Notes under the pieces: generated by a model | What the model was told of the DNA's origin: nothing | Database searches by the model: none | Seen by the model: only the letters and a program-made list of their open reading frames with translations | Part shown: in pieces, positions 5,820 through 53,060 of the stretch | Layout of the letters: each line of letters begins with the position of its first letter | Position numbering within the stretch: the first letter of the stretch is position 1 | Program-made: the position numbers and the translations under genes | Assembly: GCF_058153355.1 (NCBI RefSeq) | Contig: NZ_CM177019.1 | Length of the DNA stretch: 64,000 nucleotides | Direction: 5' to 3' (one strand)

Positions 5820-5838
5820 TCATCAGGAGCAGTGAATT

Positions 5839-6112
<274 letters not shown>

Positions 6113-48215: not shown

Positions 48216-48291
<76 letters not shown>

Positions 48292-48652
48292 ATCAAGTAG
48301 CGCGCATTCTATGGAGACATGCGAGTTCATGCAACTAAAAAATTGCATAATTTGTTTTATTGGTCACATTTTATGCGACACGATGAAGAAACAGTCGAAC
48401 AGAGGGCAAATTAGCACACTTTTTCAACATCATTGTTCTCAACAATGCGCTCCTTCTAAAGCGCAATTCTTTTTATCAGATGGAATATCTGTCACATTGC
48501 TTTTCAACGATAGCTTCCCGGGAGAGATTTTTTCTTATTATTCCTCCCCATCTGGTGTTACCCTCCTGCCCATTAACCCATTCAACAGAACTGTGACGCG
48601 CCATGGCAAATATCGTTTTGCCGATAGAGCTATGACCGCCAGAAACATGCTT

Positions 48653-49603
48653 ATGAGTATAAAAGAGCAAACGTTAATGACGCCTTACCTACAGTTTGAC
48701 CGCAACCAGTGGGCAGCTCTGCGTGATTCCGTACCTATGACGTTATCGGAAGATGAGATCGCCCGTCTCAAAGGTATTAATGAAGATCTCTCGTTAGAAG
48801 AAGTGGCCGAGATCTATTTACCTCTGTCACGTTTGCTGAACTTCTATATAAGCTCGAATCTGCGCCGTCAGGCAGTTCTGGAACAGTTTCTTGGTACCAA
48901 CGGGCAACGCATTCCTTACATTATCAGTATCGCAGGTAGCGTCGCGGTGGGGAAAAGTACAACCGCCCGTGTATTGCAGGCACTATTAAGCCGTTGGCCG
49001 GAGCATCGTCGTGTTGAGCTGATCACTACAGATGGCTTCCTTCACCCTAATCAGGTGCTGAAAGAACGTGGTCTGATGAAGAAGAAAGGCTTCCCGGAAT
49101 CGTATGATATGCATCGCCTGGTGAAGTTTGTTTCCGATCTCAAATCCGGCGTGCCAAACGTTACGGCACCTGTTTACTCGCATCTTATTTATGATGTGAT
49201 CCCGGATGGAGACAAAACTGTTGTTCAGCCTGATATTTTAATTCTTGAAGGGTTAAATGTCTTACAGAGCGGGATGGATTATCCTCACGATCCACATCAT
49301 GTATTTGTTTCTGATTTTGTCGATTTTTCGATATATGTTGATGCACCAGAAGACTTACTTCAAACGTGGTATATCAACCGTTTCCTGAAATTCCGTGAAG
49401 GGGCTTTTACAGACCCGGATTCCTATTTTCATAACTACGCGAAATTAACTAAAGAAGAAGCGATTAACACTGCCATGACATTGTGGAAAGAGATCAACTG
49501 GCTGAACTTAAAGCAAAATATTCTACCTACTCGTGAGCGCGCCAGTTTAATCCTGACAAAGAGTGCTAATCACGCGGTAGAAGAGGTCAGACTACGCAAA
49601 TAA
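48653..49603 (+). CDS. coaA: pantothenate kinase CoaA (316 aa)
   Basis: ORF 48311..49603; known N-terminus [20 protein letters not shown] starts at 48653; P-loop GSVAVGKST. Confidence 0.95.
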
Positions 49604-49612
49604 TTTAAAGGG

Positions 49613-49624
49613 GAGCTAATGCTC
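49613..49624. repeat. IS4 target-site duplication, left copy (gagctaatgctc)
   Basis: 12-bp exact direct repeat flanking both IS4 ends. Confidence 0.9.
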
Positions 49625-51050
49625 TAATGCCGATCAGTTAAGGATCAGTTGACCGATCCAGTGGCTGTGTAAGAATCCGGAAACGCTCACTTGTTTCCGG
49701 ATTTTTTTATGCACATTGGACAGGCTCTTGATCTGGTATCCCGTTACGATTCTCTGCGTAACCCACTGACTTCTCTGGGGGATTACCTCGACCCCGAACT
49801 CATCTCTCGTTGCCTTGCCGAATCAGGTACTGTAACGCTACGCAAGCGCCGTCTTCCCCTCGAAATGATGGTCTGGTGTATTGTTGGCATGGCGCTTGAG
49901 CGTAAAGAACCTCTTCACCAGATTGTGAATCGCCTGGACATCATGCTGCCGGGCAATCGCCCCTTCGTTGCCCCCAGTGCCGTTATTCAGGCCCGCCAGC
50001 GCCTGGGAAGTGAGGCTGTCCGCCGCGTGTTCACGAAAACAGCGCAGCTCTGGCATAACGCCACGCCGCATCCGCACTGGTGCGGCCTGACCCTGCTGGC
50101 CATCGATGGTGTGTTCTGGCGCACACCGGATACACCAGAGAACGATGCAGCCTTCCCCCGCCAGACACATGCCGGGAACCCGGCGCTCTACCCGCAGGTC
50201 AAAATGGTCTGCCAGATGGAACTGACCAGCCATCTGCTGACGGCTGCAGCCTTCGGCACGATGAAGAACAGCGAAAATGAGCTTGCTGAGCAACTTATAG
50301 AACAAACCGGCGATAACACTCTGACGTTAATGGATAAAGGTTATTACTCACTGGGACTGTTAAATGCCTGGAGCCTGGCGGGAGAACACCGCCACTGGAT
50401 GATACCTCTCAGAAAGGGAGCGCAATATGAAGAGATCAGAAAACTGGGTAAAGGCGATCATCTGGTGAAGCTGAAAACCAGCCCGCAGGCACGAAAAAAG
50501 TGGCCGGGACTGGGAAATGAAGTGACAGCCCGCCTGCTGACCGTGACGCGCAAAGGAAAAGTCTGCCATCTGCTGACGTCGATGACGGACGCCATGCGCT
50601 TCCCCGGAGGAGAAATGGCGGATCTGTACAGTCATCGCTGGGAAATCGAACTGGGATACAGGGAGATAAAACAGACGATGCAACTGAGCAGGCTGACGCT
50701 GAGAAGTAAAAAGCCGGAGCTTGTGGAGCAAGAGCTGTGGGGTGTCTTACTGGCTTATAATCTGGTGAGATATCAGATGATTAAAATGGCGGAACATCTG
50801 AAAGGTTACTGGCCGAATCAACTGAGTTTCTCAGAATCATGCGGAATGGTGATGAGAATGCTGATGACATTGCAGGGCGCTTCACCGGGACGTATACCGG
50901 AGCTGATGCGCGATCTTGCAAGTATGGGACAACTTGTGAAATTACCGACAAGAAGGGAAAGGGCCTTCCCGAGAGTGGTAAAGGAGAGGCCCTGGAAATA
51001 CCCCACAGCCCCGAAAAAGAGCCAGTCAGTTGCTTAACTGACTGGCATTA
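49625..51050 (+). mobile_element. insertion sequence IS4 (1426 bp), complete
   Basis: Imperfect terminal inverted repeats (left taatgccgatcagttaag / right reverse complement taatgccagtcagttaag), single transposase ORF, 12-bp flanking direct repeat; length equals canonical IS4. Confidence 0.93.
49709..51037 (+). CDS. insG: IS4 transposase (442 aa)
   Basis: ORF 49691..51037; product from ATG 49709 [24 protein letters not shown]... recognised as IS4 transposase. Confidence 0.93.
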
Positions 51051-51062
51051 GAGCTAATGCTC
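51051..51062. repeat. IS4 target-site duplication, right copy (gagctaatgctc)
   Basis: 12-bp exact direct repeat flanking both IS4 ends. Confidence 0.9.
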
Positions 51063-51069
51063 CCCTTTC

Positions 51070-52035
51070 TTATTTTTCTGCACTACGCAGGGATATTTCA
51101 CCGCCCATCCAGGGTTTTATTATTCCATCCTGCTCAAGCAATAAAGCGCCTTGTTTGTCTATTCCGCGTGAAATGCCAAATATTTCTTTATCACCAATGA
51201 TAAGTTTCACTGGGCGATTAATAAAATTATCCAGTTTTTCCCAGCGCGACAGATAAGGTGCCAATCCTTCTTGCTCGAAGAGTTCCAGCGCCGCACGTAA
51301 TTCACGTATTAGCATGGCCGCCAACGCATTACGATCGAGATTGATCCCAGCTTCCTGAAGCGTGATCCACCCCTGATTAACGATATTCTCTTCAACACGA
51401 CGCATTGCCATGTTGATCCCGGCACCAATGACTATTTGCGCCGCATCGCCGGTTTTGCCAGTCAGCTCCACAAGAATACCTGCCAGCTTGCGATCCTGCA
51501 GATAGAGGTCATTCGGCCATTTAACACGAACTTTATCAGCGCCCAACTTGCGTAATACTTCCGCCATCACGATACCGATAACCAGACTTAAACCAATCGC
51601 CGCAGCCGGGCCTTGTTCCAGACGCCAGAACATCGACAAATATAAGTTTGCGCCAAAAGGTGAAAACCATTTCCGACCTCGGCGACCACGTCCTGCCTGC
51701 TGGTATTCAGCAACGCAGGCATCACCCGATTTAAGCTCTCCGATACGATCAAGAAGATACTGATTCGTGGAGTCAATAACGGGCAGCACGGCTACACTAC
51801 CGCTATCCAGCTGACTCAATATCTGTTCAGCATTAAGTAACTGGATGGGCTCAGGCAGGCTGTATCCTTTACCCGGAACGGTAAAGACATCAACGCCCCA
51901 GTCACGCAGTGTTTGAATATGTTTATTAATGGCCGCCCGGCTCATTCCTAACGTTTCACCCAGCTGCTCACCAGAGTGAAATTCGCCATTCGCTAATAGC
52001 GTGATTAATTTTAGCGGAACGGTATTATCCTTCAT
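51070..52035 (-). CDS. birA: biotin-protein ligase / biotin operon repressor BirA (321 aa)
   Basis: ORF 51070..52035 minus; N-terminal HTH and GRGRRGR motif. Confidence 0.95.
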
Positions 52036-53060
52036 GAAATCGTCTCCACTGCGCTAACTTCACCTGATGTACCAATAAAGCGAACTTCTGGCTCAAGCCA
52101 GACATTAAATTTTTCACCCACTTTCTGTCTTACATGATGTGCCAGCTGCACAATATCTTCGCTTTTTGCATTGCCTTCATTAATGAGAACTAACGCCTGT
52201 TGACGGTGTACCGCAGCCCCACCAATTTGTGTTCCTTTTAGCTGGCACTGATCGATAAGCCAACCAGCGGCCAGTTTTACTGAACCATCCGTCTGGGGAT
52301 AATTTGGTGCTGTTGGAAATTGTGCCAGTAATGCTTTAGCCGTTTCGGCAGATACAACAGGGTTTTTGAAGAAACTACCGGCATTGCCATTCACTTTTGG
52401 ATCAGGGAGTTTGGTGGTGCGCATATGACACACCGCATCAAATACTTGCTGTGGCGTTACGGTTGTAGGATCCAGACGAGTTAAGTCACCATACGTTAGT
52501 ACAGGTTGCCACTCTTTTGGCAGGCGCAGACCTACGGCTACAATGGCGAAGCGGTCCTGGTATTCATGTTTAAAAATACTGTCGCGATAGCCAAAACGGC
52601 ACTCTTTGGCAGTTAAGCGCACTTGCTTGCCTGTCGCCAGTTCGACACAGTCAACATAAGCGCAAACTCGCTGTAATTCTACGCCATAAGCACCAATATT
52701 CTGGATAGGTGATGAGCCGACACAACCAGGAATTAACGCCAGATTTTCCAGACCTGGCATACCTTCCTGCAAAGTGTATTTTACCAGTCGATGCCAGTTT
52801 TCTCCGGCTCCTACATGTAAATACCACGCATCAGGTTCATCATGAATTTCGATACCTTTGATCCGGTTGATGATCACCGTGCCGCGATAGTCTTCCAGAA
52901 AAAGTACATTACTTCCTTCACCCAGAATAAGAACGGGTTGCCCTTCTGCGGTTGCATGCTGCCAGGCATTGAGTAGTTGTTGTTCGTCTTCGGCACATAC
53001 AATGTGCTGAGCATTATGATCAATGCCAAATGTGTTCCAGGGTTTTAAGGAGTGGTTCAT
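52032..53060 (-). CDS. murB: UDP-N-acetylenolpyruvoylglucosamine reductase MurB (342 aa)
   Basis: ORF 52032..53060 minus; recognised as MurB; 4-bp overlap with birA. Confidence 0.95.

Follow-up and report, generated by a model that had tools for sequence, protein, structure and literature searches.

Why does a copy of the insertion sequence (IS) IS4 lie exactly within the hairpin that separates the convergent genes coaA and birA, and what becomes of the transcripts of both genes once that hairpin has been split? The locus is part of a stretch of 64,000 nucleotides (nt) from assembly GCF_058153355.1, contig NZ_CM177019.1, referred to below as the window. The analysis indicates that an intact IS4 entered the 28-bp spacer between coaA and birA by genuine transposition, probably not long ago. 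A preference of the IS4 transposase for flanking A- and T-runs would have selected the site, and terminator hairpins carried at both ends of the element would limit the consequences for the neighbouring genes. We consider this account, taken as a whole, very probable.

IS4 in the coaA-birA spacer

The element occupies positions 49625-51050 (plus strand) and is 1426 bp long. Over its full length it is 99.9% identical to loci annotated as 'IS4-like element IS4 family transposase' in many Escherichia coli genomes. It differs by 1 nt from the commonest E. coli IS4 copy and by 3 nt and 2 amino acids (aa) from the copy of K-12 MG1655 (99.8% nucleotide identity), figures above the 95% identity to the reference that, at a length of ~1426 bp, identifies IS4. 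The left terminal inverted repeat (IRL, TAATGCCGATCAGTTAAG) and the reverse complement of the right one (IRR, TAATGCCAGTCAGTTAAG) agree at 16 of 18 positions and start with TAATGCC, and a repeat finder returned a 36-nt inverted repeat that unites the element ends with their flanks. The single open reading frame (ORF) runs from the ATG at 49709 to the stop codon at 51035-51037 and encodes an intact transposase of 442 aa, which matches NCBIfam NF033592 with 304.5 bits (cutoff 115) and contains the Pfam domains Nterm_IS4 (PF13006) and DDE_Tnp_1 (PF01609). The translation also shows the Y(2)R(3)E(6)K motif, as defined in PMC2266710. A DDE transposase with the IS4 N-terminal domain is encoded in one frame. 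Judged from its sequence, the element is IS4 itself, with its ORF and both ends intact. An earlier sequence-only reading of the window had described it as a complete 1426-bp IS4 with 18-bp imperfect repeats and a 442-aa transposase, and had placed the K-12 copy elsewhere. Each of these features was found as described, and the K-12 copy was located at 4502090-4503515, between yjgZ and nanX.

An exact 12-bp direct repeat, GAGCTAATGCTC, abuts both termini (49613-49624 and 51051-51062). Such a match would arise by chance with a probability of ~4^-12, and its length falls within the 11-13 bp of IS4 target-site duplications. Following the coaA stop codon, which ends at 49603, the order is TTTAAAGGG, the 12-mer, IS4, the second 12-mer and CCCTTTC. 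Removal of IS4 and one repeat copy reconstructs TTTAAAGGGGAGCTAATGCTCCCCTTTC and restores a coaA-birA spacer of 28 bp (TTT AAA GGGGAGC TAAT GCTCCCC TTT C), a hairpin with a 7-bp GC stem between an A-run and a T-run. In a 55-nt context the reconstructed site folds with -21.1 kcal/mol on the plus strand and -21.8 kcal/mol on the minus strand (z ~ -6), and the core hairpin alone with -14.3 kcal/mol. The reconstructed hairpin site exists naturally; strain 2020CK-00188 carries it with 100% identity over 600 bp. The proposed 12-bp target duplication around IS4 was thus confirmed, and with it a genuine transposition into a terminator-like hairpin between the two convergent genes. The features of the locus are as follows.

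48653-49603, plus strand: coaA, encoding type I pantothenate kinase (316 aa); the insertion leaves the coding sequence intact (ORF, annotation of L002 and K-12, PF00485)
49604-49624, no strand: left half of the split target, comprising TTT, AAA (49607-49609, positions -18 to -16), GGG and the left repeat copy
49613-49624, no strand: left copy of the target duplication, GAGCTAATGCTC; 4-bp stem, 4-nt loop, -4.4 kcal/mol
49625-49642, plus strand: IRL, 18 bp, TAATGCCGATCAGTTAAG (repeat comparison of ends)
49649-49676, plus strand: promoter-like TTGACC-16-AAGAAT with upstream TG, candidate transposase promoter (9 of 12 consensus matches)
49671-49708, plus strand: left-end hairpin, core ATCCGGAAAC/GTTTCCGGAT, followed by T7 (inverted repeat and folding)
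49709-51037, plus strand: IS4 transposase (InsG-like), 442 aa, intact (NF033592, Pfam, comparison with K-12 InsG)
51013-51046, minus strand: right-end hairpin with TCTTTTTC tail (terminator scan, folding, K-12 Term-seq)
51033-51050, plus strand: IRR, 18 bp (repeat comparison of ends)
51051-51062, no strand: right copy of the 12-bp target duplication
51063-51069, no strand: right half of the split target, comprising CCC, TTT (51066-51068, positions +16 to +18) and C
51070-52035, minus strand: birA, 321 aa, intact, last gene of murB-birA; stop codon 51070-51072
52032-53060, minus strand: murB, 342 aa, overlapping the birA start

The ORF that contains coaA can be extended to 430 aa; this longer frame opens immediately after the thrU tRNA gene (48216-48291) and adds 342 nt before the accepted start. 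Some public annotations list a similar CoaA of 424 aa (L042, L046 and L051), and the region 48311-48652 is an over-extension.

Target preference and spacer alleles

The sequence-only reading had placed the insertion exactly in the hairpin. The location held, and it is no curiosity once the target preference of IS4 is considered. The search with the left junction had brought up other IS4 copies with similar flanks. We rebuilt the empty sites of 15 IS4 loci from complete genomes, which gave 11 distinct sites, the window included. The duplications at the ten other sites were 11-13 bp in length. Upstream of the left end, A occupied positions -18, -17 and -16 at 10, 11 and 8 of the 11 sites; downstream of the right end, T occupied +16, +17 and +18 at 8, 10 and 10 of them. 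Eight of the 11 sites were A-run/GC-hairpin/T-run structures at gene 3' ends, among them tynA/feaB, adhE/tdk, aroA/ycaL, typA/yihL and raiA/bamD. The window has AAA exactly at -18 to -16 and TTT at +16 to +18, the positions with the strongest conservation in the survey. At raiA-bamD the element was found in opposite orientations in IAI39 (L001 2501-3960) and USVAST219 (L034 1501-2940), with the same 13-bp duplication read on either strand; because the orientations are opposite, these represent independent insertions at one hot spot.

An independent set of 17 left flanks, obtained by scanning genome contigs for the IS4 left end (16 from Kosakonia oryziphila REICA_142 and one from Photorhabdus khanii), gave the same picture. 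AAA was present between -24 and -13 in 13 of the 17 flanks, compared to a background of 0.15 (p = 3e-8), and the per-position frequency of A again peaked at -18 to -16. The fetched loci held no right ends to pair with the Kosakonia left flanks. The arm specificity of the IS4 subgroup has been called 'spectacular' (PMC2266710), and the preference derived from our survey agrees with De Palmenaer et al. Full-text literature searches did not find an explicit statement of an AAA-N20-TTT consensus for IS4, and the preference described here is derived from the sequences assembled for this analysis and not from a published consensus. Mayaux et al. (1984, Gene 30:137) reportedly described an IS4 in the pheST attenuator together with such an AAA-N20-TTT consensus, with which the pattern found here agrees.

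These observations suggest the following scheme. The IS4 transposase cuts its target with a stagger of 11-13 bp, 12 bp in this case, and strongly prefers targets in which A-A-A stands 16-18 bp before the left IS end and T-T-T stands 16-18 bp beyond the right one. Such a symmetric pattern is naturally provided by intrinsic terminator hairpins, with an A-run on one side and a T-run on the other. The lineage allele AAA GGGGAGC TAAT GCTCCCC TTT matches it, whereas the GCA alleles of the K-12 and O157 type do not. On this pattern, the exact match to a terminator is not a coincidence and reflects the target preference of IS4.

Several points weigh against this scheme. The survey was small and non-random: each E. 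coli record taken from the head of one hit list contributed its best-scoring place, and all Kosakonia flanks were left flanks of a single genome. Of the 11 sites, three (those in K-12, in ygeA and in a phosphotransferase system IID gene) form no hairpin, although they keep the arms. The duplication in the window runs from G to C, in contrast to the C...G of most sites. Finally, there are genomes with the AAA allele that carry no IS4 at coaA-birA. Since the three non-hairpin sites keep the arms, it is probably the A/T arms rather than the hairpin that the transposase reads.

The spacer itself is polymorphic. Positions -18 to -16 read AAA in the window (49607-49609) and GCA in K-12 and O157 (L035 and L037), and the loop and top pair of the hairpin also differ (GCTAATGC in the window compared to CGAATA in K-12). 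The exact allele of the window, searched as an 88-mer, was present in 8 complete E. coli genomes, while the K-12 and O157 alleles accounted for most of the 5101 matched genomes, as judged by the spread of identities. Unlike the common alleles, the AAA allele agrees with the IS4 target pattern, which is a plausible, unproven reason for the rarity of the insertion. Because AAA-allele genomes with an empty site exist, the allele would be at most permissive. A difference of 2 nt in a terminator flank may decide whether a spacer is an IS4 target.

A separate variant of this spacer was noted in L057 (2095-2135; GCA_044522465.1). A 1-nt deletion in the A-run at the birA end shifts the frame, and BirA is thereby 326 aa long, translated through the terminator hairpin to a stop codon in the TTTAAA flank.

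Three further observations concern other IS4 copies. At least 16 contigs of K. oryziphila REICA_142 (L003-L018) end in an IS4 left end that is identical over 30 nt to that of the E. coli element, and their flanks mostly show the A-run/GC-stem pattern; this looks like an expansion of IS4 outside Escherichia, presumably after horizontal transfer. A 265-bp contig assigned to Methylobacterium mesophilicum NBRC 15688 (L020) has an IS4 left-end flank, …GATAGTTTGTTACAAACACCAGAACCAAGAT, identical to the nanX-adjacent site of E. coli SCU-387, which itself looks like the K-12 IS4 locus; the contig is most likely E. coli DNA contaminating the assembly. In SCU-172 (L028 1440-2990) the IS4 copy, flanked by a truncated GntR-family gene and by kup, lacks a target duplication, which points to a deletion or to one IS4 copy having recombined with another.

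Expected transcript ends at the occupied spacer

The intact host hairpin had been called a bidirectional terminator. In the coaA direction this is correct. A terminator scan of an identical empty site (L002) returned a terminator-like structure, AAAGGGGAGCTAATGCTCCCCTTT with tail CTTATTTTTC, and Term-seq of K-12 MG1655 placed a primary coaA 3' end at 4174046 (minus strand; LB at an optical density (OD) of 0.4 and M63; Adams et al. 2021, PMC7815308, Supplementary file 1), six nt past the hairpin stem. The host hairpin is thus an experimentally supported coaA terminator, as measured on the K-12 allele. In the birA direction the window-type allele passed a loose consensus pattern, with tail AAATTATTTG after an A:T-extended stem. 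This pattern was passed by the AAA allele only; the K-12 allele (GCA GGGGAG CGAATA CTCCCC TTT) was flagged in the coaA direction only. The K-12 Term-seq data list no birA 3' end at the host hairpin (PMC7815308, Supplementary file 1). Instead, they list Rho-dependent regions at 4174249 (plus strand, antisense to coaA) and 4173792 (minus strand, antisense to birA; Supplementary file 2), and birA-direction RNA reaches the former, ~200 nt into antisense coaA. A literature search for coaA-birA named as a bidirectional terminator returned nothing relevant. The term 'bidirectional' is thus only half supported; it may apply to the window-type allele, by a loose pattern match.

The insertion splits this hairpin, as had been proposed. 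Each side retains only GAGC-TAAT-GCTC, with a 4-bp stem (-4.4 kcal/mol), and the host terminator is gone. IS4 itself carries inward-facing hairpins at both ends. The right-end hairpin, read on the minus strand from 51046 down to 51013, consists of GCCAGTCAGTT-AAGC-AACTGACTGGC followed by TCTTTTTC. Its perfect 11-bp stem and 4-nt loop span 51021-51046 and its tail includes TCTTTTT. The structure folds with -17.5 kcal/mol and was flagged by the terminator scan (tail TCTTTTTCGG). The K-12 IS4 is identical to the window copy across this hairpin, and in K-12 RNA 3' ends were mapped at 4502126/4502127 (plus strand), at the end of the right-end T-run, in LB at OD 0.4, LB at OD 2.0 and M63 (PMC7815308, Supplementary file 1). 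A Rho-dependent region lies at 4502176, ~50 nt further into the K-12 element (PMC7815308). A stem-loop, a T-run and a mapped 3' end are thus all present at this end, the last by way of the K-12 data.

The sequence-only reading had raised the possibility that transcription from birA now continues antisense into the transposase gene. This is unlikely, because RNA 3' ends map directly after the right-end hairpin in K-12, with the Rho-dependent region behind it. Since birA-direction RNA was not seen to stop at the host hairpin in K-12, the insertion may have improved birA termination rather than removed it.

At the left end, the plus strand carries AAGAATCCGGAAAC-GCTCACTT-GTTTCCGGA followed by T7 (49671-49708), directly before the transposase ATG. 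This inward-facing hairpin folds with -16.8 kcal/mol. The -10 element of the candidate promoter overlaps its 5' arm, and transcripts from that promoter would start inside the arm, so only read-through transcripts from coaA would be expected to form the full hairpin. We propose it as a candidate terminator, and as a structure that may sequester the start site of the transposase gene, for transcripts arriving from coaA. It counts against this proposal that the consensus terminator scan did not flag the left-end hairpin, termination there being read from sequence only; we think that the scan missed it because the A:T extension of the stem consumes the T-run. The Term-seq tables list no insG 3' end on the left-end strand (PMC7815308). 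The earlier suggestion that coaA transcripts read into the left IS end therefore stands as far as entry is concerned, but these transcripts meet a hairpin of ~-17 kcal/mol and T7 before they reach the transposase ATG.

With both coding sequences untouched and the host hairpin split, the inward hairpins of IS4 would supply termination on both sides. Transcripts of coaA would end ~85 nt inside the left end (near 49705-49710) and those of birA ~37 nt inside the right end (near 51013), and the net effect on expression of coaA, birA and the transposase would be expected to be small.

Distribution, alternative explanations and related systems

We searched 5426 complete E. coli genomes with a 600-bp empty-site query made of 300 bp of left flank, including one repeat copy, and 300 bp of right flank. 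The empty site was found at one unsplit place in each of 5420 genomes, and the genomes with any match were the same 5420 that matched with at least 80% coverage. No IS-sized insert is present at any of these sites, because an insertion would split the query into two places. A query across the left junction was covered to at least 80% in none of the 5426 genomes, and the coaA-birA IS4 junction, in either IS orientation, had no exact match in metagenome contigs. Exact look-ups of the BirA and MurB proteins of the window returned 20 further places, all with an empty 28-bp spacer. The insertion at coaA-birA is rare, although IS4 as such is not: 2686 of the 5426 genomes have at least one match (median 1, maximum 24 places). 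The suggestion that the insertion is strain-specific holds as to rarity; the insertion may belong to one strain or to a whole lineage.

We considered whether the many 2-5 kb contigs that contain an exact BirA (125 blocks) had been cut by IS4, which would indicate a widespread insertion. This was rejected, as the empty site is present in contigs of 4.6-4.7 kb that have rrn and tufB as their boundaries (L058 and L059).

Three other explanations of the locus were weighed against a transposition with small net effect. If the split terminator simply left both genes open, murB-birA transcripts would run antisense through the transposase gene, coaA transcripts would enter IS4, and BirA or CoaA levels or IS4 activity would be altered. 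The loss of the host hairpin speaks for this: only GAGC-TAAT-GCTC remains on each side, the proximal side has no T-run behind it, and the unsplit hairpin has a mapped coaA 3' end in K-12 and, in the window allele, shows a terminator pattern on both strands. What it leaves out is the element itself. An 11-bp hairpin with a T-run faces birA, with K-12 3' ends directly after it and a Rho-dependent region behind, a strong hairpin with T7 precedes the transposase ATG, and birA-direction RNA in K-12 is not seen to stop at the host hairpin anyway. We regard this explanation as unlikely.

A coincidental repeat, or junctions produced by IS4-IS4 recombination or mis-assembly, would remove the need for a direct transposition. 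Multiple IS4 copies, up to 24, are indeed present in many genomes, repeats can be misplaced when short reads are assembled, and the SCU-172 copy without a duplication shows that rearrangements between IS4 copies occur. At coaA-birA, however, the exact 12-bp duplication has a length typical of IS4, the gene order on either flank is that of the universal coaA-birA arrangement, removal of IS4 and one repeat restores a natural empty site with 100% identity over 600 bp, and the site fits the target pattern at both arms, all of which makes this explanation close to negligible. Selection for an altered coaA 3' untranslated region or birA regulation, e.g. for mRNA stability through a ~100-nt 3' extension, is also very improbable. 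Nothing favours it directly, although both mRNAs do receive new 3' ends through the insertion; none of the 5426 complete genomes has the insertion, not even the 8 that share the target allele exactly, and the site choice is fully explained by the target preference.

With transposition into a preferred site as the preferred explanation, the closest comparison is the K-12 IS4 itself (insG, b4278; IS4 family, IS4 subgroup). It has the same length, 18-bp imperfect repeats, a 442-aa DDE transposase and the same 11-13 bp duplication range, and differs in locus only (yjgZ-nanX there, coaA-birA here). The insertions at raiA-bamD, tynA-feaB, adhE-tdk, aroA-ycaL and typA-yihL share with coaA-birA the A-run, the GC stem, the 11-13 bp duplication at the apex and the T-run, with few bases between the gene ends and the coding sequence untouched. 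The coaA-birA site differs from the other hairpin sites in its G...C duplication (mostly C...G elsewhere) and in a left arm, AAA, that belongs to a minority spacer allele. The locus thus holds a known element at a site that had not been seen before but is of a kind to be expected.

In IS10 and IS50, RNA structure around the start of the transposase gene shields the element from transcription that enters from outside, as established in the Kleckner and Reznikoff laboratories. IS4 may be analogous, since it has an inverted repeat immediately before the transposase ATG and transcription from its predicted promoter would start inside this repeat. It differs from IS10 and IS50 in that the left structure also resembles a full intrinsic terminator (T7) and a second structure faces inward at the other end; in vivo 3' ends support the right-end structure, and the left-end model is proposed by analogy. 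Other mobile elements likewise use structured intergenic DNA at gene 3' ends with less damage to the host, including IS1397/ISKpn1 and ISRm22 in repetitive extragenic palindromic (REP) sequences or bacterial interspersed mosaic elements and Tn7 downstream of glmS (PMC1525189). Unlike these, IS4 uses no single repeat family or att site. Its targets share a loose symmetric A-arm/T-arm pattern ~18-20 bp apart, and 3 of the 11 sites lie in coding or non-hairpin DNA.

The small survey and the published Term-seq data suggest that the end hairpins of IS4 take over termination for neighbouring genes, which, if general, would explain the persistence of IS4 at gene 3' ends. We put forward, tentatively and with more doubt than confidence, a broader view in which IS4 is a terminator-homing element with built-in replacement terminators and near-neutral insertions, and in which a 2-nt change from GCA to AAA turned a refractory spacer into a target. 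The arm preference is old knowledge; as far as we found, the literature searched does not spell out the idea of a self-insulating element in safe sites or that of an allele-created target. The current understanding of coaA, birA and IS4 is unchanged. What is added here is a reason for the exact location, the allele difference in the left arm, and evidence that the IS4 end hairpins, and not the remnant stems, would set the new 3' ends. The locus is a textbook case of a target preference that steers IS4 into intergenic terminator hairpins with little harm done, and, for genome annotation, the insertion is a clean, datable marker of a strain or lineage.

The window as a whole is unusually distant from sequenced E. 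coli. Over 25-kb stretches, identity reaches 98.4-99.3% with the best of the 5426 complete genomes, and with K-12 it is 96.8% across the segment from coaA to murB; by sequence identity the window is from a somewhat divergent Escherichia. Its gene order is standard (aceBAK-rrnE-purHD-thi-rpoBC-tufB-coaA-birA-murB-rrnB-murI-btuB-trmA), and IS4 is the sole IS within the 64 kb, which speaks against a classical Shigella. Three tandem naRNA4 (RF02564) matches at 5838-6098 (minus strand) form a REP-type repeat cluster near the ace/arpA region.

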